Position numbers and translations under genes: made by a program. Below are positions 2,778-33,688 of a DNA stretch of 64,000 nucleotides, in pieces. This stretch comes from Escherichia coli (lineage in GTDB: Bacteria > Pseudomonadota > Gammaproteobacteria > Enterobacterales > Enterobacteriaceae). The notes beneath the pieces were generated by a model. That model saw only the letters and a program-made list of their open reading frames with translations. It ran no database searches and was not told the DNA's origin. Each line of letters begins with the position of its first letter. Positions within the stretch are counted from its first letter, which is position 1. Location: the NCBI RefSeq assembly GCF_024298765.1, contig NZ_CP101210.1; one strand, given 5' to 3'.

Positions 2778-3143
2778 ATGTATATTTATTGGATTTTATT
2801 AGGTCTGGCTATTGCTACAGAAATTACCGGTACGCTGTCCATGAAATGGGCGAGCGTCAGTGAGGGAAATGGCGGCTTTATTTTAATGCTGGTGATGATT
2901 TCTCTGTCGTATATATTTCTCTCTTTCGCCGTTAAAAAGATCGCCTTAGGCGTAGCTTATGCGCTGTGGGAAGGTATCGGTATTTTATTTATTACCTTGT
3001 TTAGCGTTTTGTTATTCGACGAAAGTTTATCTCTGATGAAAATTGCCGGGTTAACCACCCTGGTCGCCGGGATTGTGTTGATCAAATCAGGTACCCGTAA
3101 AGCGCGTAAACCTGAACTGGAGGTGAACCATGGCGCAGTTTGA
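2778..3143 (+). CDS. mdtJ: SMR-family spermidine exporter subunit (121 aa)
   Basis: 121-aa four-helix small multidrug resistance-like ORF; 14-nt overlap with the next SMR gene as expected for mdtJI. Confidence 0.9.
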
Positions 3144-3459
3144 ATGGGTTCACGCCGCCTGGCTGGCATTGGCAATCGTGCTGGAAATCGTTGCTAACGT
3201 CTTTTTGAAATTTTCTGACGGCTTTCGTCGCAAAATATTTGGCTTGCTCTCTCTGGCGGCGGTGCTGGCTGCCTTTAGTGCGCTTTCTCAGGCCGTTAAA
3301 GGGATCGACTTGTCTGTCGCTTATGCATTGTGGGGCGGATTTGGTATTGCCGCCACGTTAGCCGCAGGTTGGATCTTGTTTGGTCAACGGTTAAATCGTA
3401 AAGGCTGGATTGGCCTGGTGCTGCTGTTGGCTGGAATGATCATGGTGAAACTTGCCTGA
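3130..3459 (+). CDS. mdtI: SMR-family spermidine exporter subunit (109 aa)
   Basis: 109-aa SMR-like ORF translationally coupled to mdtJ. Confidence 0.9.
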
Positions 3460-3497
3460 TGAACACGCTGCCCGCGCTGTCGGGCAGCGTTTGAACA

Positions 3498-4319
3498 TTA
3501 TTTTTGCGACAGTTGATCCAGCTTGTCGCGAAAACCAGTAACAGAAATGGCCCGGTTATCGGCGCGCCAGCGATCTTTCGCGGCAGGAGCCGAACTTTGC
3601 ACCCCAATTAATTGCCAGCCGTCATCGGTATGCAACATCAGAGGCGAACCGCTGTCACCCGGCAAGGTATCGCACTGATGCGACATCACCGACGTTTGCG
3701 CCCAGCCAGTCACTTCACAGTTTTGATGACTGTACAACGTATCGAGATGATCTTCAGGGTATCCCGCCTGAGTCACTTTACGACCTGCCGCTTTTAATGC
3801 GGCGGTAAGCGTGGCTTTATCTCCCTCAAATAACGGCAATGGTGTAATGCCAGAAGGGGGATTACGTAGCACAATCAAACCGAAGTCCCACGGCGCAGCT
3901 GCGGGAGGAACAATCCAACCATCCCCATCTGCTTTTAACCGCTTTCCCAGTGTCGGATCAACGCGGCCTTCTATGTCGTGGATCTCATAGCGCCAAAGAC
4001 CTTTATTTGACACGAAACGCAGCGCTACCGCTTTATCGGCTTTACCCTTTGGCGGCGTCAATAAACAGTGTCCTGCCGTTAATGCCAGATTGGGTGCAAT
4101 CAGCGTCGCTGTACATAAATTGCCGCTGGCCGTTTCCAGTTGGCCAACCGCATCCCACGGTGATTGGGTCGTGTCATTCACTGGCACACGATCATCATGA
4201 CCAAAAAACAGGGTGCTGACCTCATCGTTTGCCGATTTGGCAACGTCTGGTTTATCTGCAAACACAAAAGCAGACGTCAAACTAATTGCACCCAACACTA
4301 CAGCAATGGTTCTACGCAT
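3498..4319 (-). CDS. ydgD: Secreted trypsin-like serine protease (273 aa)
   Basis: N-terminal signal peptide; TAGHC and GDSGSP motifs typical of the chymotrypsin fold. Confidence 0.85.
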
Positions 4320-4594
4320 ATCACACTCTGGTGGGTAATTATGATTATTAAAAGCAAACCCTCATAAATACTATAGACGGGACGGGATGAAAGTGGGAGT
4401 AAAATCAGATAACTACGATCAGGAAAGATAAAAACGGGCGGCAATCAGTGCGCATAAAATAAGGATGATAAGAATGAACTCAAAGCGATAACGGCCCACC
4501 ATACTACCCTCCGCTAAAGGCGGTGCTAAACGTTACCCGTTTAGCACCGTAATTTTCAGGCGCGAGGGGGCGCGCCAGCATTACTGTTGAAAAC

Positions 4595-4903
4595 TTACGC
4601 TGCGGGTTGTGCAGCAGGTTTTGCCGGTTGCTGATGGCTGTGTTTCTTGGCGTGTTTCTTCGCTGCCTGCGCTTTTTGTTCAGGAGCTTTCTGTTCAGCT
4701 TTGGCATTTTTATGATGCTTTTTAGCCGCCTGCGCTTTCTGGGCAGGTGCTGCTTTATGCTGTTTTTTATGATGTGTGGTTTTCGCAGGCGCTGCTTTGG
4801 TGGTCGTCGCAGTCGGAGCAGGTGTGGTCGCAGTCTCTGCAGCAAAGGCAGCAGAAGACAGACCCATAGCAGCGGCAACAACCAGAGCTAATACTTTTTT
4901 CAT
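4595..4903 (-). CDS. asr: Acid shock protein (102 aa from third in-frame Met)
   Basis: Signal peptide [21 protein letters not shown] followed by Lys/Ala/His-rich repeats; the ORF extends nine codons further upstream to 4930. Confidence 0.85.
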
Positions 4904-5327
4904 TGTCATACCCTCAATTTGTTTTTTCATTTAACCCCACTGCGGGGCCGTTGAAATAACTATATCCCTGGGAATGGCAGACTTCCGTGAGTGGTTGGTT
5001 TCAGCGTGTAACGATATGTACAAACGCTGAATAAATTACAGCGTTGATAATAACGTATTGTGACTTAAGGAAAATTCATCTACCAATAATAGTAGTCTTG
5101 ATCGTGTTAACTATTTTACTACTTACAAAGCGGTAGAATAACTGCGCATCAGTAATAAATGACACACAGCAAAATGAATCCGTTTATTTGGGTACTTATA
5201 ATCCTGATGACACTAGATGCGCTGCGGGAATTGGCTGGCGCTTCGTCTATTTTAGGATGGCTATTAACGTTGGTTTGAGCAGGCAATAAGTCCGGACGGG
5301 TATTTACCTCAGTCCGGACTTATTTTT

Positions 5328-6581
5328 TCAGGCGTGCAGACGATGATGCAAACGCGTCCCGACCAGCAGAGCAATGACCAGCATCAGAGCAATAAATGCG
5401 CCGACGCCGTTCCAGCCATAGTTATGCCAGAAAACACCACCCAGCGTCCCGGCAATACTCGACCCCAGATAGTAACTGAACAGATACAGCGAGGAGGCCT
5501 GGCCTTTAGCGCGTTTTGCGCGGGGGCCGATCCAGCTGCTGGCTACTGAGTGGGCTGCGAAGAATCCGGCTGAGAAGAGTAACATTCCGGCAAAGATCAG
5601 CCACAGCGAGCTAAATAAGGTCATCAGTAAACCAAACAGCATAACCCCCGTCGAAAACAACATCACCGGACCGCGCCCATAGCGGGTGGTCATGGTTCCG
5701 GCTTTGGGTGAGCTCCATGTACCGGTCAAATAAGCCAGCGATAATAAGCCAACCACGGCCTGGCTGACATGCCAGGGGGAGAGCATCAACCGATAGCCGA
5801 CGTAATTAAACAGCGTGACGAACGACCCCATCAGCAAAAAGCCTTCTGCGAACAATAACGGTAATCCCCGGTCACGCCAGTGCAGACGAAAGTTGATGAA
5901 TAACGTCTTAGGGCGCAGTGAAGTCGGGCGAAAATGGCGTGATTCAGGGAGGATTTTCCAGAACATTAACGCCGAGGCCAGCGCGAAACAACCGATTGCC
6001 GCCAGCGCAATTCGCCAGTTGAAAAAGTCCGTGAAGACACCGCTAATTAAGCGTCCGCTCATGCCGCCAATTGAGTTGCCGCTGATATACAACCCCATCG
6101 AAAAGGCCACGAAACTGGGGTGGATTTCCTCGCTAAGATAAGTCATGCCAACAGCTGCTACGCCACTTAACGAAAGCCCAATCAAGGCGCGCATAATCAA
6201 AATGCCGTGCCAGCTGGTCATCATTGTCGAAAGTAACGTACAAATGGAGGCCAACAGTAGCGCCGTGACCATCACTGGTTTGCGACCAATGGCATCGGAT
6301 AACGGGCCAGTAAACAGCAAACCGATAGCCAACATCGCCGTGGAAATGGACAGTGAAATACTACTGTTCGCGGGCGTTAAGCCAAACTCCTGCGAAAGCA
6401 CCGGAAGGATAGGTTGCACACAATAGAGAAGTGCGAAGGTTGCCAGTCCGGCAGAGAACAGCGCCAGGGTGACGCGCATAAATTGCGGCGTACCGCGTTT
6501 AATAAATTGATTTGGCTGAGAAATGCTTTGCTTGTCAGTGTCGCTTGCCGGAGCGCCATCAACAGTTGTAGTACGGCTCAC
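5328..6581 (-). CDS. ynfM: MFS transporter (417 aa)
   Basis: 417-aa multi-helix ORF; synteny with ynfL. Confidence 0.85.
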   Translation of the reverse strand: MSRTTTVDGAPASDTDKQSISQPNQFIKRGTPQFMRVTLALFSAGLATFALLYCVQPILPVLSQEFGLTPANSSISLSISTAMLAIGLLFTGPLSDAIGRKPVMVTALLLASICTLLSTMMTSWHGILIMRALIGLSLSGVAAVGMTYLSEEIHPSFVAFSMGLYISGNSIGGMSGRLISGVFTDFFNWRIALAAIGCFALASALMFWKILPESRHFRPTSLRPKTLFINFRLHWRDRGLPLLFAEGFLLMGSFVTLFNYVGYRLMLSPWHVSQAVVGLLSLAYLTGTWSSPKAGTMTTRYGRGPVMLFSTGVMLFGLLMTLFSSLWLIFAGMLLFSAGFFAAHSVASSWIGPRAKRAKGQASSLYLFSYYLGSSIAGTLGGVFWHNYGWNGVGAFIALMLVIALLVGTRLHHRLHA

Positions 6582-9060: not shown

Positions 9061-9756
9061 ATGCTGAAGCGTTTCTTTATTACCGGTACAGACACTTCTG
9101 TAGGGAAAACGGTGGTTTCCCGCGCATTGCTACAAGCGTTAGCCTCCCAGGGAAAAACGGTTGCGGGATATAAACCCGTAGCGAAGGGGAGCAAAGAGAC
9201 ACCCGAAGGGCTGCGTAATAAAGATGCCCTGGTGTTGCAGAGTGTTTCAACCATCGAACTGCCTTATGAAGCAGTTAATCCTATCGCGTTAAGCGAAGAA
9301 GAAAGTAGCGTGGCGCACAGTTGCCCAATCAATTACACCCTCATTTCAAACGGCCTGGCAAACCTGACCGATAAAGTCGATCATGTCGTGGTAGAAGGGA
9401 CTGGCGGCTGGCGCAGTCTGATGAATGATTTGCGTCCGCTCTCTGAATGGGTGGTGCAGGAACAACTGCCGGTATTGATGGTTGTCGGTATTCAGGAAGG
9501 TTGCATTAACCATGCACTACTAACAGCTCAGGCGATTGCCAACGACGGGCTGCCGCTCATTGGCTGGGTGGCTAACCGAATCAATCCAGGACTGGCGCAT
9601 TATGCGGAAATCATTGATGTGCTCGGTAAAAAACTTCCGGCACCGCTCATTGGTGAACTGCCTTATCTGCCGCGCGCCGAACAGCGTGAACTGGGGCAAT
9701 ACATCCGCTTAGCTATGCTTCGCAGTGTGCTGGCGGTAGATAGAGTCACGGTGTAA
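9061..9756 (+). CDS. ynfK: Dethiobiotin synthetase paralogue (231 aa)
   Basis: [18 protein letters not shown]-loop typical of BioD; ATG at 9061 preceded by GGAG; the ORF track begins at an upstream GTG. Confidence 0.85.
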
Positions 9757-11158: not shown

Positions 11159-11773
11159 CTATCGAAAGAGTGGTTTAACCGCGACAGGAATCAACAGTTG
11201 TGATTGCCATTGCGCCAGCGTTAAGCGAGCCAGTTCCCCCAGTGCACGGTAGAAAGGGTGTTCTGCTTTTTCGATAAAAACGTCAAGAAATCGTGTTGAC
11301 CACGGAAAAAGGTGCCATGCCAGCAATTCTTCGCATTCTGTCTGGCGACCATTCTCCGCCAACCACGCAGCCATCAACAGCAGTGAACCAAAATGATCTT
11401 CCGGTTCGTTTTGCTTCATTTCAAACTGAATGCCTTTCTCGCGCATCCACTGACGAAGTGCCAATGTTGAATCGCCAAACAGCACAGATTCGCGATCCAG
11501 CCAGACCGATCCCCACGGCGGAGACGGCAGTGCCCACGGGCCGACAAACAAACGCTGCCAGGCCTGGGCGTGAGTCTCTTCACACTGTGTCTGAAAAGCC
11601 GTCACCAGCGGCGCTAATGACGCTTCTGGTAGAGGCCACTGAGTTTCCCAGCCGTCACGGGTGAGTACCGCAACCAGAGGTGCGGCTTCCGCACTCTCTG
11701 GAGCGTAATAAAACAGCGCGCCCAACACGCGCGCCGCGACAGAAAAATTATCTTGCTGTGAAAAATGGGTCAT
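11159..11773 (-). CDS. dmsD: Tat proofreading chaperone for DMSO reductase (204 aa)
   Basis: MTHFSQQDNFSVAARVLGALFYYAPES N-terminus; lies downstream of ynfEFGH. Confidence 0.9.
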   Translation of the reverse strand: MTHFSQQDNFSVAARVLGALFYYAPESAEAAPLVAVLTRDGWETQWPLPEASLAPLVTAFQTQCEETHAQAWQRLFVGPWALPSPPWGSVWLDRESVLFGDSTLALRQWMREKGIQFEMKQNEPEDHFGSLLLMAAWLAENGRQTECEELLAWHLFPWSTRFLDVFIEKAEHPFYRALGELARLTLAQWQSQLLIPVAVKPLFR

Positions 11774-11815: not shown

Positions 11816-12670
11816 TTAACCTGCAATAGCCATTCCTACCGTCATGTGCAGGCCATAAAAGAGCACACGCCCGATCATCTCACCGCCAAGTATGAGGATT
11901 AGCCCCAGAATAAGTCCGGCAACGTGAGGTTCACGGCGACGAATGAGCGGACAAAGCCAGCATCCTAGACCTGTGCATAACAATACCACACGCCAGACCT
12001 GTAAGGAGGCGTAATCTGGTACCAGTGCGCTGGCTTGTTGTACGGATGAGTGAATAGACGCCAGAGACAAACCTTGCAGCACAATCACCCCGGCACAAGC
12101 GATCAGCGCCAGAACGCTAATGATGGCAAATGGTGTGGTATTAAATGTAACGCGGGCTGCCCGCAGAATTGTGGCAGCAAGTATTGGACCGCTCAACAAT
12201 ACTGTCAGGAAGAAAGCCAGCGTAGTGTAACCGTTATACCAGGTTGGCACTGTGTCGATTTGATACACGCAGGTCATCATCCAGACGAAAATGACGCCGA
12301 GCGCCATGCTGACAAGTAACCAGAGTTTCCCCAACGCTTGCGGCATTTTACCGATGACTGCCACCAGCCACCATAATCCGCCAACGGCAAAAAATATGGA
12401 ACCGGCAGCAATCTCGTTACTCAGACCAGAAGCTCCGATTCGATTCAGCGAGTTAAACGCTCGCAGTGGCGATCCCAGGTGCATGACAGAGGCAATAAAC
12501 CCGATGCCCATCAACAGCCAGAGGAAAAACATGCCACGGACAATACGCTGACGGTCTGCGTCATTATTGGCGGCGAACCAGCCAATTCCGCTAACAATCA
12601 GCGCGCCTACTACGCATTGACCCAATACGGTAAAGATAACCAGTGGCCATTCATGCCATCCATTTCCCAT
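11816..12670 (-). CDS. ynfH: DMSO reductase-type membrane anchor subunit (284 aa)
   Basis: Start at internal MGNGWHEWPLVIF; hydrophobic DmsC-like protein; abuts the ynfG stop. Confidence 0.85.
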   Translation of the reverse strand: MGNGWHEWPLVIFTVLGQCVVGALIVSGIGWFAANNDADRQRIVRGMFFLWLLMGIGFIASVMHLGSPLRAFNSLNRIGASGLSNEIAAGSIFFAVGGLWWLVAVIGKMPQALGKLWLLVSMALGVIFVWMMTCVYQIDTVPTWYNGYTTLAFFLTVLLSGPILAATILRAARVTFNTTPFAIISVLALIACAGVIVLQGLSLASIHSSVQQASALVPDYASLQVWRVVLLCTGLGCWLCPLIRRREPHVAGLILGLILILGGEMIGRVLFYGLHMTVGMAIAG

Positions 12671-12671
12671 T

Positions 12672-13289
12672 TTACACTTCCTCCGGATTAGCCAGATAAC
12701 CAGTGGTATCGCCGGTCGGGCGGCTGTTGGCGTTAGGTTTGATAACGATATTGGGTTTTGTGAAATGCGCGCGCGGTAGTGGCGCGACGGCAGCCAGAGT
12801 GCCGTGCTTCTGGCGCAGCTCTTCAATTGGACCGAACTCAAGTGCACGCAGCGGGCAGGATTCGACACATATGGGTTGTTTCCCCTCGGCGACGCGCGAA
12901 TAACAACCATCGCACTTCGTCATGTGTCCTTTTTCAGCATTGTACTGTGGCGCGCCGTACGGACAAGCCATGTGGCAGTAGCGGCAGCCGATACAAACAT
13001 CTTCATCAACCACCACAAAGCCATCTTCACGCTTATGCATTGCGCCGCTGGGGCAGACTTTTGTACATGCGGGGTCATCGCAATGGTTACAGGAGATGGA
13101 GAGATAATAAGCGAACACGTTCTGGTGCCAGACGCCATTATCTTCCTGCCAGTCGCCGCCAGCATATTCATAAATACGGCGGAAACTGACTTCCGGGCCA
13201 AGATCTTTAAAATCTTTGCACGCCAGTTCGCAGGTTTTACAGCCAGTACAGCGGCTGGAATCGATAAAAAATCCATATTGTGTGGTCAT
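12672..13289 (-). CDS. ynfG: DMSO reductase-type 4Fe-4S ferredoxin subunit (205 aa)
   Basis: Four CxxCxxCxxxCP ferredoxin motifs (CTGCKTCELAC, CNHCDDPACTKVCP, CIGCRYCHMACP, CDGCYSRV). Confidence 0.92.
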   Translation of the reverse strand: MTTQYGFFIDSSRCTGCKTCELACKDFKDLGPEVSFRRIYEYAGGDWQEDNGVWHQNVFAYYLSISCNHCDDPACTKVCPSGAMHKREDGFVVVDEDVCIGCRYCHMACPYGAPQYNAEKGHMTKCDGCYSRVAEGKQPICVESCPLRALEFGPIEELRQKHGTLAAVAPLPRAHFTKPNIVIKPNANSRPTGDTTGYLANPEEV

Positions 13290-13299
13290 GGGCTACTCC

Positions 13300-15723
13300 T
13301 TAAACCTTTTCGATCTGGACAAGATTGCTGTGCGACGGGTTTCCCTTTGCCAGCGGTGAAGGGCGGTGAGAGGTCAGAATATTGATACTGCCGCCGTGAT
13401 CGACCCGGTCACCAAACATATCCGCTTTAAGCCACGCACCTTGCCCGATGGCGGTAACGCCAGGCAGAATACGCGGAGTCACTTTTGCGGCAATCAGCAT
13501 TTCTCCATTATTGTTAAATACCCGCACGGTATCGCCATGACGGATACCGCGTGCCTGAGCATCAATAGGGTTGATCCACACCTCTTGTGGGCAGGCCTGC
13601 TGTAACACATCAATATTGCCGTAGCTGGAGTGGGTACGCGCTTTGTAGTGGAAGCCCGTTAGCTGCAGTGGATAGGTTTTCCGCAGGGGATCGTCCCAGC
13701 CATCAAAACCTGGGGTATACGCAGGAAGGGGATGAATAATTTCATCTTTTTTCAATTCCCAGGTATCCGCAATCGTCGCCAGTCGTTCAGAATAAATTTC
13801 GATTTTCCCCGAAGGTGTTTTCAACGGGTTTGCCTGTGGATCTTCACGGAATGCGCGGAAAGCGACGTAGTGTTCTTCAGGGCATTTTTTCTTAAAGATC
13901 CCGGTCGTTTTCATCTCCTCGTAGTCGGGCATCTCAGGGTTACGTTCCTTCGTTTTCGCATGGAGATATTTGATCCATTCGTGCTGACTGCGGCCTTCAG
14001 TAAAGGTTTGATAAACGTCTGGTCCTAAGCGTTTGGCAACTTCGCTCAGCATCCAGTAGATGGGTTTGCGTTCAAATTTTGCTGAGGTTGCGGGTTGGGC
14101 GAGGATCACATAGCCCATATTCCCGGCAGATTCATGAGAGATAAGGTCTTCTTGCTCTGTTGGCATCAGGTCGGGCAACAGGATATCGCAATACTTAGCC
14201 GAGGCAGTAATGAAGTGGTCAATGCCAACAATCATCTCGCACTTGCTGTCATCCTGAAGCACCTCATGGGTGTGATTGATGTCGCCATGTTGATTGATCA
14301 ATGTGTTACTGGCGTAGCACCATAAAAACTTGATGGGGACATCCAGTTTTTCTTTTCCACGAACACCATCACGGGTCGCGGTCATTTCCGTACCGTGGTC
14401 GATGGCATCTGTCCATGTAAAGACGGAAATCTGCGTTTTAACAGGATTCTCAAGCATCGGGAACCATTCTACCCCCAGATCCCAGCTACCTTCGCGTACA
14501 CCTGAGTTGCCGCCGTTTATGCCGACGTTACCGGTGAGAACGGAAAGCATGGCAATAGCGCGGGACGTTTGTTCGCCGTTGGAGTGTCGTTGTGGCCCCC
14601 AACCCTGACAAATATAAGCAGGTTTTGCTGAACCGATCTCTCGTGCCAACTGGATAATTTTTTCTGCCGGTATGCTGGTGATTTTTGCTGCCCATTCCGG
14701 CGTTTTAGCTATGCCGTCAGGCCCTTCGCCCAGAATATAGGCTTTATAATGCGCGTTACGTGGTGCGTTGGCGGGCAGCGTTTTTTCATCGTAACCAACA
14801 CAATATTTGTCGAGAAATGGCTGATCGACCATGTTTTCAGTAATCAGTACCCAGGCAATCGCACAGGCCAGTGCTCCATCGGTGCCAGGGCGAATGGGCA
14901 GCCATTCATCTTCACGTCCGGCAGCTGTGTCGTTATAACGTGGATCGATGACGATCATGCGTGCATTTGAACGTTCGCGGGCTTGCTCGACGTAGTAAGT
15001 GACACCACCGCCGCTCATCCGCGTTTCTGCCGGGTTATTTCCGAACATAACGACCAGTTTCGTATTGGCGATATCATCCGGGCTGTTGCCATCATTGGCA
15101 CCGAACATATAACTCATTGCGGCACTGATTTGAGCGGTACTGTAGCTGCCATAGCGACTGAGAAAACCACCGCAAGAGTTCATCAGACGGTACGGGACGT
15201 TCGAGTTGGTGATGTTTCCGCCATCTACGCCTGTTCCGTACAGGACATGTACAGCCTCATTGCCGTATTCTTTCAGGATCCGCCGAAGATTATCACTGAT
15301 GATATCCAGGGCTTCATCCCAACTTATCCGTTCAAATTTACCTTCACCGCGCTTGCCGACACGCTTCATGGGATATTTCAACCTATCAGGATGATTCATC
15401 CGTCGGCGGATAGAGCGCCCGCGTAAACACGCTCGAACCTGATGATTACCGTAGACGTCGTCACCTGTCGTATCAGACTCCACCCAGTACACGGTGTCAT
15501 CTTTCACATGCAAACGTAACAGACAGCGGCTCCCGCAGTTAACGGTGCAGGAACTCCAGACCGCTTTCTCTTCTACCGGTGCCTCTGCCGCTCGGACCAT
15601 TTGGGAAAATGGCAGAGTGAAAGCACTGCTTGCCAGCGCGAGACTGCCAAGTGCGGAGGTTTTCATCAGACTTCTACGGCTGATTTCAGCCTTCATGAGC
15701 GCCTCTGTGGTATGGATTTTCAT
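13300..15723 (-). CDS. ynfF: Molybdopterin oxidoreductase catalytic subunit, DmsA paralogue (807 aa)
   Basis: Twin-arginine signal (SRRSLMKTSALG) and Cys-cluster CTVNCGSRC; tandem paralogue of ynfE. Confidence 0.9.
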   Translation of the reverse strand: MKIHTTEALMKAEISRRSLMKTSALGSLALASSAFTLPFSQMVRAAEAPVEEKAVWSSCTVNCGSRCLLRLHVKDDTVYWVESDTTGDDVYGNHQVRACLRGRSIRRRMNHPDRLKYPMKRVGKRGEGKFERISWDEALDIISDNLRRILKEYGNEAVHVLYGTGVDGGNITNSNVPYRLMNSCGGFLSRYGSYSTAQISAAMSYMFGANDGNSPDDIANTKLVVMFGNNPAETRMSGGGVTYYVEQARERSNARMIVIDPRYNDTAAGREDEWLPIRPGTDGALACAIAWVLITENMVDQPFLDKYCVGYDEKTLPANAPRNAHYKAYILGEGPDGIAKTPEWAAKITSIPAEKIIQLAREIGSAKPAYICQGWGPQRHSNGEQTSRAIAMLSVLTGNVGINGGNSGVREGSWDLGVEWFPMLENPVKTQISVFTWTDAIDHGTEMTATRDGVRGKEKLDVPIKFLWCYASNTLINQHGDINHTHEVLQDDSKCEMIVGIDHFITASAKYCDILLPDLMPTEQEDLISHESAGNMGYVILAQPATSAKFERKPIYWMLSEVAKRLGPDVYQTFTEGRSQHEWIKYLHAKTKERNPEMPDYEEMKTTGIFKKKCPEEHYVAFRAFREDPQANPLKTPSGKIEIYSERLATIADTWELKKDEIIHPLPAYTPGFDGWDDPLRKTYPLQLTGFHYKARTHSSYGNIDVLQQACPQEVWINPIDAQARGIRHGDTVRVFNNNGEMLIAAKVTPRILPGVTAIGQGAWLKADMFGDRVDHGGSINILTSHRPSPLAKGNPSHSNLVQIEKV

Positions 15724-15783
15724 CATTACTCACTTATTGCTTTTCAAACAAAATGTCATGCCAGAATTTATGGTTGTAGTGGG

Positions 15784-18210
15784 TTATATTTTTTCGATCT
15801 CGACCAGATTAGTGTGCTGCGGGTTTCCCTTCGCCAGTGGTGAAGGGCGCAGAGTGGTTAGCGTATTCACACAGCCGCCATGGTCGATTTTATCGCCAGA
15901 CATATTGGCCTCGTGCCAGGCTCCCTGGCCCATAGCGCTAACCCCAGGGAGAATGCGTGGTGTCACTTTGGCTGGTAGCCGAACTTCGCCACGATGGTTA
16001 TACACCCGCACCATATCGCCGTTGGCAATCCCACGTTTCTGTGCGTCAATAGGGTTGATCCACACCTCCTGACGGCAGGCAGCCTTCAGGACATCAATGT
16101 TGCCGTAGGTCGAGTGAGTACGGGATTTGTAATGGAAACCAAACAGTTGCAGTGGAAAAGTACTACGTTCAGGGGAGTCCCAGCCTTCAAAGGTTGAGGC
16201 ATAAACCGGCAGTGGGCTTATCACTTCATCTTTTTCCAGTTCCCAGGTACGGGCAATTTCCGCCAGCTTGCTGGAATAAATTTCAATCTTACCGGAAGGC
16301 GTTTTAAGTGGATTTGCCTCGGGGTCGTCACGAAATGCTTTGTAGGCGACAAAATGACCATTGGGATCTTTACGCTTATAGATACCCATTTTTTTCAGTT
16401 CGTCGTAAGACGGTAACGCCGGATCTTTGGCAAGCATTTTGGCGTACAGATGTTGTAACCATTGTTCCTGCGTGCGACCTTCTGTGAACTTTTGATAGAC
16501 GTCAGGTCCAAGACGTTTCGCGACCTCACTCAGGATCCAGTAAATCGGTTTGCGTTCGAATTTTTCGCTGGTGACTGGCTGAAGGAAAATGAGATATCCC
16601 ATGTTACCGGCGTAGTCGTTAGGAATAATATCTTCCTGCTCAACGGTCATCAGGTCTGGCAGCAGAATGTCGGCATATTTTGCCGATGAGGTCATAAAGT
16701 TTTCGATGACCACAATCATTTCGCATTTCGATTCGTCCTGCAGAATTTCATGCGTTTTGTTGATGTCAGAATGCTGATTAACCAGGGTATTTCCCGCGTA
16801 GTTCCAGATGAACTTAATGGGCACATCCAGTTTATCTTTGCCCCGGACGCCGTCGCGGATTGCCGTCATTTGCGGGCCATGATCGATAGCATCCGTCCAG
16901 CTGAAGCAGGAGATTGACGTTTTGACCGGATTATCCAGCACCGGCAGGCGTTCTATGGTAATGGTATAGGTCGATTCACGCGCGCCACTATTCCCGCCGC
17001 TGATGCCGACATTGCCCGTCAGAATAGGCAACATCGCAATAGCGCGTGCAGTCAGCTCGCCGTTTGCCTGGCGTTGCGGTCCCCAGCCCTGGCAGATATA
17101 AGCGGGTTTTGCTGTGCCAATTTCACGCGCCAGTTTGATGATACGGTCCACCGGGATACCGGTAATTTGCGAAGCCCACTGCGGCGTTTTCGCTGTTTTG
17201 TCGTCTCCTTCACCAAGAATATAGGCTTTATAGTGACCATTTTTTGGTGCATCTGCGGGTAAGGTTTTTTCGTCATAGCCGACGCAGTATTTATCGAGAA
17301 AAGGTTGATCAACGAGATTTTCGTTAATCAATACCCAGGCAATACCCGCAACCAGCGCGGCATCGGTGCCCGGGCGAATAGGAAGCCATTCGTCTTCACG
17401 ACCGGCAGCCGTATCGGTATATCGCGGATCGATAACAATCATTTTTGCGTTCGATTTCTCGCGCGCTTTTTCAAGAAGATAAGTGATGCCACCACCGCTC
17501 ATGCGGGTTTCTGCCGGGTTGTTACCAAACATCACGACCAGCTTGCTGTTTTCAATATCCGTTGTGCTGTTGCCATCATTACTGCCGTAGGTGTAGGGCA
17601 TGGCACAGGAGATTTGCGCGGTGCTGTAGGAGCCATACTGGTTGAGTGAACCGCCGTAGCAGTTCATCAGGCGTTTGACCGCCGAGGCGGATGGCGAAGA
17701 GCGGGTCATATTGCCGCCAACAATCCCCGAAGAGTACTGAATATATACAGCCTCATTGCCATATTGTTCGACGGTTTTTTTCAGGCTACTGGCGATAGTA
17801 TCCAGGGCTTCATCCCAGCTAATCCGTTCGAATTTGCCTTCGCCGCGTTTGCCCACGCGTTTCATTGGGTAATTCAAGCGGTCGGGATGATTAATACGCC
17901 GACGGATGGAGCGACCGCGCAAACAGGCGCGTACTTGATGATTGCCATACTCATCGCTGCCGGTGTTGTCAGTTTCCACCCAGGTCACTTCATTATCTTT
18001 AACATGTAGACGAAGTGCACAGCGGCTACCACAGTTGACGGAACAGGCACCCCAGACCACTTTTTCGCTGGCTTGTTGTACCGCTGCCGCTGCACTGCGC
18101 AGGGTGAACGGTAAAGAAAAACCGCCTGCAGCCAGCGCCAGAGAACCTATCGCGGTAGATTTAACGAGTGTTCTGCGGCTGATGCCCACCATTTGTTCAT
18201 TTTTGGACAT
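15784..18210 (-). CDS. ynfE: Molybdopterin oxidoreductase catalytic subunit, DmsA paralogue (808 aa)
   Basis: Twin-arginine signal (SRRTLVKSTAIG) and CSVNCGSRC; highly similar to ynfF along its whole length. Confidence 0.9.
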   Translation of the reverse strand: MSKNEQMVGISRRTLVKSTAIGSLALAAGGFSLPFTLRSAAAAVQQASEKVVWGACSVNCGSRCALRLHVKDNEVTWVETDNTGSDEYGNHQVRACLRGRSIRRRINHPDRLNYPMKRVGKRGEGKFERISWDEALDTIASSLKKTVEQYGNEAVYIQYSSGIVGGNMTRSSPSASAVKRLMNCYGGSLNQYGSYSTAQISCAMPYTYGSNDGNSTTDIENSKLVVMFGNNPAETRMSGGGITYLLEKAREKSNAKMIVIDPRYTDTAAGREDEWLPIRPGTDAALVAGIAWVLINENLVDQPFLDKYCVGYDEKTLPADAPKNGHYKAYILGEGDDKTAKTPQWASQITGIPVDRIIKLAREIGTAKPAYICQGWGPQRQANGELTARAIAMLPILTGNVGISGGNSGARESTYTITIERLPVLDNPVKTSISCFSWTDAIDHGPQMTAIRDGVRGKDKLDVPIKFIWNYAGNTLVNQHSDINKTHEILQDESKCEMIVVIENFMTSSAKYADILLPDLMTVEQEDIIPNDYAGNMGYLIFLQPVTSEKFERKPIYWILSEVAKRLGPDVYQKFTEGRTQEQWLQHLYAKMLAKDPALPSYDELKKMGIYKRKDPNGHFVAYKAFRDDPEANPLKTPSGKIEIYSSKLAEIARTWELEKDEVISPLPVYASTFEGWDSPERSTFPLQLFGFHYKSRTHSTYGNIDVLKAACRQEVWINPIDAQKRGIANGDMVRVYNHRGEVRLPAKVTPRILPGVSAMGQGAWHEANMSGDKIDHGGCVNTLTTLRPSPLAKGNPQHTNLVEIEKI

Positions 18211-18408
18211 AACTCACTCCCTGTTCTTTATCGTTATATAAAAGTTTATATATTGAATATTTAGCGCGCTAACAATAGAGGGAGTCTACCTATTTTGGGT
18301 TAAGAATTATTAATCCATATCAATAGAAGGGTATGAGTAATAAGGTGGGATTATGTTGTATATTCAAATCGCCGGATGTGTCGTATCCGGCGTGCAGTCG
18401 ATAATGTA

Positions 18409-32662: not shown

Positions 32663-33688
32663 ATGCACATTTTATCTGTTTCAAAAAAGGAAGTTGGAAG
32701 AGCTGGGGATAGATTAGTTTCTCAGTTTGGTACAGGTGAAAAATATAAAGAGGAAGATGTACAAATTCTTCATGAGTGGAGGATGTTGCATTTATATCCT
32801 TTAAGTAAAATACAATTTTATATGGAAAGAGAGGCTATTTCCTTAAACAAAAATGCGTTACTATCCTCTAGAATTAAGAGGATGCCTTCCATTGTTACTA
32901 AGCTTTCTAGATTTCCTGATATGAAGTTAAATAAGATGCAGGATCTTGGTGGGTGCCGGGCTATTTTAAATAATCTGGATCAAGTGTATGATTTAGTTAA
33001 TAAAATAAAATCATCTAAATTCTCACATGAACTAGTTAGAATGGATGATTACATGATAGACGTGAAAGATTCTGGTTATAGAAGCTTTCATATGGTCTAT
33101 TCATTCCAAAATAAAAAATTTCCATCTTTAAATGGGTTGCGCATTGAAATGCAAATAAGAACAGCTATTCAACATAGCTGGGCTACAGCAGTTGAAATGG
33201 TTGGTTTGTTTCGAAAGGAATCATTGAAATCTGGTTTTGGTGATGCAAGATGGCTTAGGTTTTTTGAATTGGTATCAGAGCTTTTTTATAAACTTGAGTA
33301 TGAAAAAGAACCATCTGGGAGTTATATAAAAATATCAGAAGAATTAAGTTATTTATCCGTCGAGTTGAATGTTTTCGATATATTAGCTGCTTACAATGCC
33401 GTAGTTAGCCATATTGAGGGTAGCAAAAAATATGATAAAGGACTTTGCATAATTGTTGTTGATACCATAAAGCGGAATATAAATATAAAGAGCTTCGAAA
33501 ATCACAATCATGCGAAGGCGGCAGAAGCTTATGTCGAGTCTGAAAAATACTGCGCGGAAAATAAAGGCTGTGAAGTGGCTATGGTTTCTGTTAGTTCAAT
33601 TAGTGAATTAAAAAATGCATATCCTGCTTACTTTTTAGATACGAAAACTTTTTTAAATTATCTCAGTAGGTATGTTTTTATAAAATAA
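32663..33688 (+). CDS. RelA/SpoT-homologue synthetase-domain protein (341 aa); candidate fused toxSAS toxin-antitoxin
   Basis: All four synthetase motifs present: RIKRMPSIVTK (RxKxxxSxxxK), DLGGCR (DxxGxR), GYRSFH, EMQIRTAIQHSWA (ExQIRT...W). About 130-aa C-terminal extension, no adjacent partner ORF, and much lower GC than the flanks. Confidence 0.75.
   Translation: MHILSVSKKEVGRAGDRLVSQFGTGEKYKEEDVQILHEWRMLHLYPLSKIQFYMEREAISLNKNALLSSRIKRMPSIVTKLSRFPDMKLNKMQDLGGCRAILNNLDQVYDLVNKIKSSKFSHELVRMDDYMIDVKDSGYRSFHMVYSFQNKKFPSLNGLRIEMQIRTAIQHSWATAVEMVGLFRKESLKSGFGDARWLRFFELVSELFYKLEYEKEPSGSYIKISEELSYLSVELNVFDILAAYNAVVSHIEGSKKYDKGLCIIVVDTIKRNINIKSFENHNHAKAAEAYVESEKYCAENKGCEVAMVSVSSISELKNAYPAYFLDTKTFLNYLSRYVFIK

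Follow-up and report, generated by a model that had tools for sequence, protein, structure and literature searches.

The tandem ynfE and ynfF genes of Escherichia coli: an old paralogous pair with rare in-frame fusions

Two closely related genes lying side by side on one strand raise the question of whether they still exchange sequence. In a stretch of 64,000 nucleotides of Escherichia coli DNA (contig NZ_CP101210.1; hereafter the window), an earlier note pointed to two adjacent genes for paralogues of the catalytic subunit DmsA that share extensive nucleotide identity, and regarded them as a likely site of homologous recombination or assembly ambiguity. The reading that we favor, and to which we give as a whole a probability of about 0.96, is that the region consists of ynfE and ynfF, ancient tandem paralogues that head the E. 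coli ynfEFGH-dmsD operon. The pair in the window is ordinary; it belongs to a textbook operon that is already known.

The list of open reading frames contains two adjoining minus-strand frames of 808 aa at exactly 13300-15726 and 15784-18210. The frame of ynfF reaches 15726 by taking in one extra in-frame ATG 5' of the annotated start, which is the second ATG. Gene names are those of the RefSeq annotation of a near-identical genome, E. coli strain 104 (NZ_CP029164.1); over the first 31,974 bases, only four SNPs separate the window from it, one of them in ynfF (14209). The 5.5-kb ynfEF region finds matches in thousands of E. coli chromosomes, with strain 104 at a reported 100.0%. On the minus strand, the annotation of strain 104 gives the order ynfD, then ynfE, ynfF, ynfG, ynfH and dmsD, and then clcB. 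The features of the locus are as follows.

ynfE, 15784-18210, minus strand: first gene of the operon, 808 aa, selenate/tellurate reductase subunit (open reading frame and RefSeq annotation)
ynfF, 13300-15723, minus strand: second gene, 807 aa, paralogous catalytic subunit (open reading frame and RefSeq annotation)
ynfE-ynfF spacer, 15724..15783, minus strand: 60 nt with the ribosome-binding region of ynfF, a Shine-Dalgarno-like AAGTGAG 5' of ATGATG
ynfG, 12672..13289, minus strand: four-cluster ferredoxin-type electron-transfer subunit (Pfam Fer4_11 and related families, annotation)
ynfH, 11816..12670, minus strand: DmsC-type membrane anchor or quinol oxidase subunit (Pfam DmsC, 6e-127, annotation)
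dmsD, 11159..11773, minus strand: NarJ-family Tat proofreading chaperone for the signal peptides of DmsA, YnfE and YnfF (Pfam Nitrate_red_del, annotation)
candidate FNR site TTGATATGGATTAA, 18310..18323, minus strand: pattern match that departs from TTGAT-N4-ATCAA at one position and lies about 106 nt 5' of the ynfE ATG

The arrangement is that of an operon: the five genes from ynfE to dmsD are co-directional, with spacers of 60, 10, 1 and 42 nt, and no terminator-like site was found in the ynfE-ynfF or ynfF-ynfG spacer. The element TTGATATGGATTAA is a candidate anaerobic activator site for the operon promoter, and FNR control of ynfEFGH is stated in PMC10845959, which cites Xu, Busby and Browning (2009). 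In K-12, translation of ynfF is repressed by the small RNA RyhB, as measured with a -60..+24 fusion (PMC4666370).

The two products can be told apart by family models. Both show the Pfam domain order Molybdop_Fe4S4, Molybdopterin, Molydop_binding, and both pass the subfamily model TIGR02166 (dmsA_ynfE) with 1283 and 1397 bits for the two proteins against a cutoff of 778, while both fall short of the DmsA-specific model (1321 and 1343 bits, cutoff 1600). The ynfE product passes NCBIfam NF041885 selenate_YnfE (1796.9 bits, cutoff 1675) and fails NF041884 selenate_YnfF (1476.4 bits, cutoff 1650); the ynfF product passes NF041884 (1771.2 bits) and fails NF041885 (1478.3 bits). Judged by their motifs, both proteins would be Tat substrates, since each carries a S/T-R-R-x-F/L-x-K motif, an h-region and an AxA-type cleavage site. 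The twin-arginine motif is SRRTLVK at aa 11-17 of YnfE (window 18160-18180) and SRRSLMK at aa 16-22 of YnfF (window 15661-15681), and the A-x-A sites lie at aa 40-43 and 47-49, respectively. A four-Cys motif for the FS0 [4Fe-4S] cluster, C-x3-C-x3-C-x27-C, spans aa 56-96 of YnfE and aa 60-100 of YnfF. Counted off the alignment, Ser196 of YnfE (in G-S-Y-S-T-A-Q) is aligned to Ser147 of the Rhodobacter sphaeroides DMSO reductase 1eu1, the Mo ligand of that enzyme, and YnfF carries the same Ser196 in the 808-aa numbering. The earlier note thus had the essentials of the locus right: the two adjacent 807/808-aa genes are borne out by open reading frames and annotation, save that its end at 15726 takes in the one extra ATG; DmsA paralogy and predicted Tat dependence agree with the Pfam and NCBIfam scores, the amino-acid identity of 70% and the twin-arginine motifs; and annotation, family models and literature uphold the known, not novel, ynfEFGH arrangement with its gene identities, order and strand.

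Comparison with known systems leads to the same picture. The window resembles the ynfEFGH-dmsD operon (ynfEFGHI) of K-12 and Salmonella in its genes, their order and strand, the lengths of 808 and 807 aa, the flanks (ynfD upstream, clcB downstream) and the FNR-like site; its DNA is about 98% identical to that of K-12-derived strains, with no difference of substance. In DmsABC, whose dmsA is a paralogue elsewhere in the genome, subunit A has the Tat signal, FS0 and the Mo-bisMGD with Ser ligand in the same way as YnfE and YnfF; subunit B holds four [4Fe-4S] clusters, subunit C is the anchor and DmsD is the chaperone, again as in the ynf operon. However, DmsABC has one catalytic gene and the ynf operon two, and the substrate of DmsABC is DMSO, whereas that reported for ynfEF is selenate or tellurate. 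The nearest solved structures by sequence are Rhodobacter DorA (1eu1/1dmr) and TorA (7l5i), at E-values of about 1e-72 to 1e-76; the sequence search found no solved structure of a DmsA/YnfE-type subunit. DorA and TorA share the Mo-bisMGD fold with YnfE and YnfF, and the Ser Mo-ligand aligns, but they are soluble periplasmic DMSO/TMAO reductases that lack the N-terminal FS0 Cys cluster as well as FeS and anchor subunits.

As for function, an E. coli strain deleted for ynfEF is unable to reduce selenate (PMC12724226), and the operon product is described as a membrane-bound selenate reductase facing the periplasm (PMC5203670). In Salmonella, DmsD binds the signal peptides of DmsA, YnfE and YnfF, and YnfF adds little to the activity; YnfE is considered the chief catalytic subunit (PMC5203670). 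Tellurate reduction has also been ascribed to the ynfEF genes (Fujita et al. 2021, as related in a citing paper). It is the genetics that suggests selenate as the physiological substrate. Taken with the motifs, these reports are consistent with a model in which a membrane-bound molybdoenzyme of the DmsABC type, facing the periplasm, would take either YnfE or YnfF as its catalytic (A) subunit. Each preprotein would have its twin-arginine signal peptide proofread by DmsD, would bind one [4Fe-4S] cluster (FS0) and Mo-bis-MGD via the Ser ligand, and would be exported folded by Tat, probably along with YnfG. Both would then dock on a common YnfG, the FeS relay, and YnfH, the menaquinol-oxidizing anchor; use of YnfGH by both catalytic subunits is what we infer from this layout. 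Anaerobically, with the operon activated by FNR, the enzyme would reduce selenate and tellurate, with most of the activity reported for YnfE.

Whether such a pair is prone to recombine depends on how alike the copies still are. At the protein level, 563 of 799 aligned residues (70%) are identical (BLASTP, E=0). The dot-plot comparison proposed earlier, carried out with blastn, gave a single diagonal, that is, one colinear HSP between the genes, nt 157-2420 against nt 145-2420, at 70.4% identity (1037 bits). The longest exact run in register is 23 nt (ynfE 16046-16068, ynfF 13562-13584), and the two genes have no 24-mer in common at any position. A run of at least 23 nt arises in 24% of codon-column shuffles (p=0.24), so the observed run is not significant. 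Where both genes use the same codon family at a four-fold-degenerate site (268 sites), the bases agree at a rate of 0.40, while composition alone would predict 0.27; these sites are near saturation. Neither the longest-run permutation nor the profile of four-fold-site identity gave a signal of gene conversion between ynfE and ynfF, and no local block of high identity was present. The long tracts (well over 25 bp) and conversion mosaics of recombination-prone or concertedly evolving repeats are therefore lacking in this pair. The identity described in the earlier note as extensive does extend over the genes as a single colinear match, but it amounts to just about 70% and nowhere exceeds 23 nt of exact agreement.

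The two S. enterica paralogues, YnfE and YnfF, share 71% identity (PMC5203670). As this pair is equally diverged, and as each E. coli protein is assigned to its own NCBIfam model and not to the other, the sequences point to a duplication that would be older than the split of Escherichia and Salmonella, with no later homogenization or concerted evolution. The same figures bear on assembly. With 70% identity and no common 24-mer, k-mer assemblers and read mappers would not confuse the copies, and 5,126 of 5,322 locus-bearing genomes match the 4.9-kb ynfF-ynfE query in one place over 80% or more of its length. The suggested assembly ambiguity is not credible.

The census behind these figures covered 5,426 complete E. 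coli genomes, in which non-homologous deletions and IS elements account for most structural variation at the locus. The commonest variant, found in 546 genomes (10.1%), is a 1570-bp remnant of ynfF produced by two clean internal deletions (window 13382-13655 and 14430-15009), whose ends are without homology and which do not involve ynfE. This ST131-type remnant is carried by EC958, the ST131 reference strain. UPEC 536, F11 and others have lost about 6.4 kb between a point within ynfH and one just upstream of ynfE; the junction shows exact microhomology of about 3 nt. All ynfEF sequence is absent from 104 of the genomes, and in some others IS100, IS1, IS1203 or ISEc52 has inserted at the locus or adjoins a deletion there. 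Exchange between ynfE and ynfF was considered as the source of the ST131-type and UPEC 536-type deletions and was rejected because their endpoints lie at non-homologous positions, with microhomology of at most about 3 nt. Across most genomes, the ynfF coding sequence keeps 95-99% identity.

A second, much rarer kind of variation does involve both genes. Unit-length in-frame ynfE'-'ynfF fusions occur in 10 of the 5,426 complete genomes (~0.2%) and go back to two independent events. They came to light with a hybrid probe made of the 3' 1200 nt of ynfF and the 5' 1200 nt of ynfE, in which the top rows exposed single 2427-bp genes spanning both halves. This probe also joined normal genomes (2,367 records), because megablast runs on through the 70%-identical paralogous half; the reciprocal probe (ynfF 5' and ynfE 3') likewise joined normal genomes, its halves adjoining across the spacer. 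The count therefore rests on a flank-only probe, whose halves can join only across a loss of about 2.2 kb or more. It matched 15 genomes, 10 of them with the exact unit-length span: 8 of the ECONIH4 type and 2 of the JCC-EE 7 type.

In both ECONIH4 and JCC-EE 7, one single 808-aa gene lies between ynfD and ynfG. The crossover intervals, in window coordinates, are as follows.

8-nt tract AACGGCGA, ynfE 17057..17064 = ynfF 14573..14580, minus strand: ECONIH4-type crossover interval
14-nt tract AACCCGGCAGAAAC, ynfE 17507..17520 = ynfF 15023..15036, minus strand: JCC-EE 7-type crossover, alignment columns 706-719

The ECONIH4 gene resembles ynfE as far as about nt 1146 and ynfF from about nt 1155 onward, switching in the 8-nt tract at aa ~383-386. 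A few F-like bases lie upstream of an E-specific patch at this junction, so the crossover interval is bounded only to roughly 8-25 nt; these bases could reflect either polymorphism between alleles or a mosaic tract left by heteroduplex repair. In JCC-EE 7, the switch falls inside the 14-nt tract at gene nt 691-704 (aa ~231-236). Both fusion types are in register and in frame and keep all cofactor motifs, and they combine the ynfE promoter and signal peptide with the C-terminal domains of YnfF. With the same genes around them, the exact chimeric proteins recur in other public assemblies: the ECONIH4 type is listed in 141 index blocks, ENA and draft NCBI assemblies among them, and the JCC-EE 7 type in four contigs, with a Logan run assembly among these. 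The identical breakpoints across independent projects and short-read assemblies show that the fusions are alleles passed on by descent, not products of assembler collapse. The two genes thus do undergo unequal exchange, far more rarely than they decay by non-homologous routes. A narrow search of the literature found no mention of these fusions.

How the fusions arose admits two explanations. At odds that we place only a little short of even, they may stem from RecA-independent replication slippage or template switching at microhomologies and not from strict homologous (homeologous) recombination. The crossover tracts of 8 and 14 nt fall under the minimal efficient processing segment of RecA in E. 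coli, which Shen and Huang in 1986 reportedly put at roughly 23-27 bp, and Lovett and co-workers are said to have described RecA-independent deletion between close tandem repeats. The other deletions at the locus also use little or no homology. On the other hand, both events are exactly in register, although 129 of the 179 maximal exact matches of at least 8 nt between the genes are out of register, and the possibly mosaic ECONIH4 junction would fit heteroduplex repair. Two in-register picks would occur by chance with p ~0.08, so the argument from register is a weak one between homeologous recombination and slippage. Selection or ascertainment of in-frame products could also account for in-register fusions.

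The broader proposal, that ynfE and ynfF form a hotspot at which frequent RecA exchange, gene conversion or assembler collapse makes the arrangement in any assembly suspect, is highly improbable. Unequal exchange does classically act on tandem direct repeats spaced about 2.5 kb, and unit-length in-frame fusions do exist. But the copies are only 70% identical, no exact run goes beyond 23 nt, no 24-mer is common to both, long identical tracts are not in excess (p=0.24), four-fold sites are near saturation, and each protein fits its own orthologue model alone. Moreover, 10 fusions from two events stand against 546 ynfF double deletions and 104 genomes without ynfEF, and the fusion alleles recur with the same breakpoints in independent projects and short-read assemblies. 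As a frequent process the proposal is largely refuted, and to call the pair a likely site of homologous recombination, although not wrong, overstated what the rare fusions bear out. Gene conversion gave no signal, and decay is commoner.

That either gene in the window is itself a decaying, non-functional copy hardly deserves belief: ynfE and ynfF do rank among the most often pseudogenized metabolic genes of E. coli (PMC13322260), ynfF is broken in ~10% of complete genomes and the share of YnfF in selenate reduction by Salmonella is small (PMC5203670), but both frames in the window are full length and free of internal stops, with all cofactor motifs intact and scores above the strict NCBIfam cutoffs, and the ynfF coding sequence is retained at 95-99% identity in most genomes.

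We thus return to ynfE and ynfF as old tandem paralogues, which would have diverged to ~70% identity after an old duplication without concerted evolution. In the window, both genes are intact and the pair is stable. E. coli at large can mostly dispense with the pair, whose decay is chiefly due to non-homologous deletion and IS insertion; only very rarely would the pair collapse, by in-register unequal exchange at identical tracts of 8-14 nt, into one in-frame ynfE'-'ynfF chimera. The chimeras may also be functional, each a selenate reductase encoded by one gene that has taken the place of the two-gene arrangement in its lineage, although we think this less likely than not.

The case offers a calibration: identity of 70% between tandem paralogues is no ground for an assembly warning, and the ynfEF locus in E. 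coli varies mainly via decay, not through exchange between the copies. For those who work on the enzyme, it may help to know that ynfF is broken in EC958 and in ~10% of complete E. coli genomes. The chimeras, if true, would mean that in-register exchange can take place between 70%-identical copies at tracts of 8-14 nt. The two lineages with in-frame YnfE/YnfF chimeras could provide material for natural domain swaps which, if the chimeras are functional, would help to map what sets YnfE apart from YnfF.

Ten complete E. coli genomes carry, in place of the ynfE-ynfF pair, a single in-frame ynfE'-'ynfF fusion gene encoding 808 aa. These natural fusions are of two independent kinds, typified by strains ECONIH4 and JCC-EE 7, and both fusion genes were also found in additional public assemblies. 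The relevant features are as follows.

Fusions and deletions affecting ynfEF (window coordinates unless a locus is named)
L007 (ECONIH4 locus) 3001-5427: ynfE'-'ynfF fusion
L008 (JCC-EE 7 locus) 3001-5427: ynfE'-'ynfF fusion
17057-17064/14573-14580: fusion crossover tract
17507-17520/15023-15036: fusion crossover tract (14 nt; JCC-EE 7)
13382-13655: clean internal ynfF deletion of 274 bp, ST131 type (relative to L002 and L012, loci with this ynfF)
14430-15009: clean internal ynfF deletion of 580 bp, ST131 type (relative to the same loci)
~12003-18369: UPEC 536-type deletion, ~6.4 kb (relative to L011, the UPEC 536 locus)
18364-18392, minus strand: GC-rich hairpin GCCGGAT-ACGACAC-ATCCGGC, followed by GATTT

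A far more widespread alteration is confined to ynfF: the ST131-type allele, with both the 274-bp and the 580-bp deletion, is a frameshifted remnant of 1570 bp. It was counted in 546 of the 5,426 complete genomes (about 10%), among them that of the ST131 reference strain EC958, and ynfE is intact in these genomes. In a 2025 study, 'ynfF' expression was measured in EC958, and YnfF was counted as one of seven functional S-/N-oxide reductases (PMC12096835). The right end of the 580-bp deletion (15010) is separated by 13 nt from the JCC-EE 7 tract at 15023-15036, and the segment encoding the conserved FGNNPAETRMSGGG motif holds both; this closeness is probably a coincidence.

The window also contains features outside the ynfEF pair. 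According to the annotation of the matching genome, bioD (+) and clcB (-) converge so that their 3' ends share 48 nt (9709-9756), and a lambdoid prophage, beside rspB, fills the remainder of the window and continues past its end.

Prophage features
23571-64000: lambdoid prophage; gene order integrase, xis, exonuclease, dicB, ydfD, cI/cro-like repressors; then hokD, cold-shock genes, lysis cassette; then terminase, tail-fibre genes
about 32663-33688: RelA/SpoT-domain protein, prophage cargo
within 23571-64000: Ail/Lom-family outer-membrane protein, prophage cargo

The ynfEF sequence is wholly absent from 104 genomes. In a strain group including UPEC 536, F11 and A0 34/86, one ~6.4-kb deletion, with a microhomology of ~3 nt at its junction, removes the 5' part of ynfH, ynfG, ynfF, and ynfE with its promoter. 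One endpoint falls inside the 18364-18392 hairpin, which comes immediately 3' of ynfD, on the upstream side of the ynfE promoter, and is probably the ynfD terminator, insulating that promoter. These strains retain dmsD, as would be expected because DmsA still requires it.
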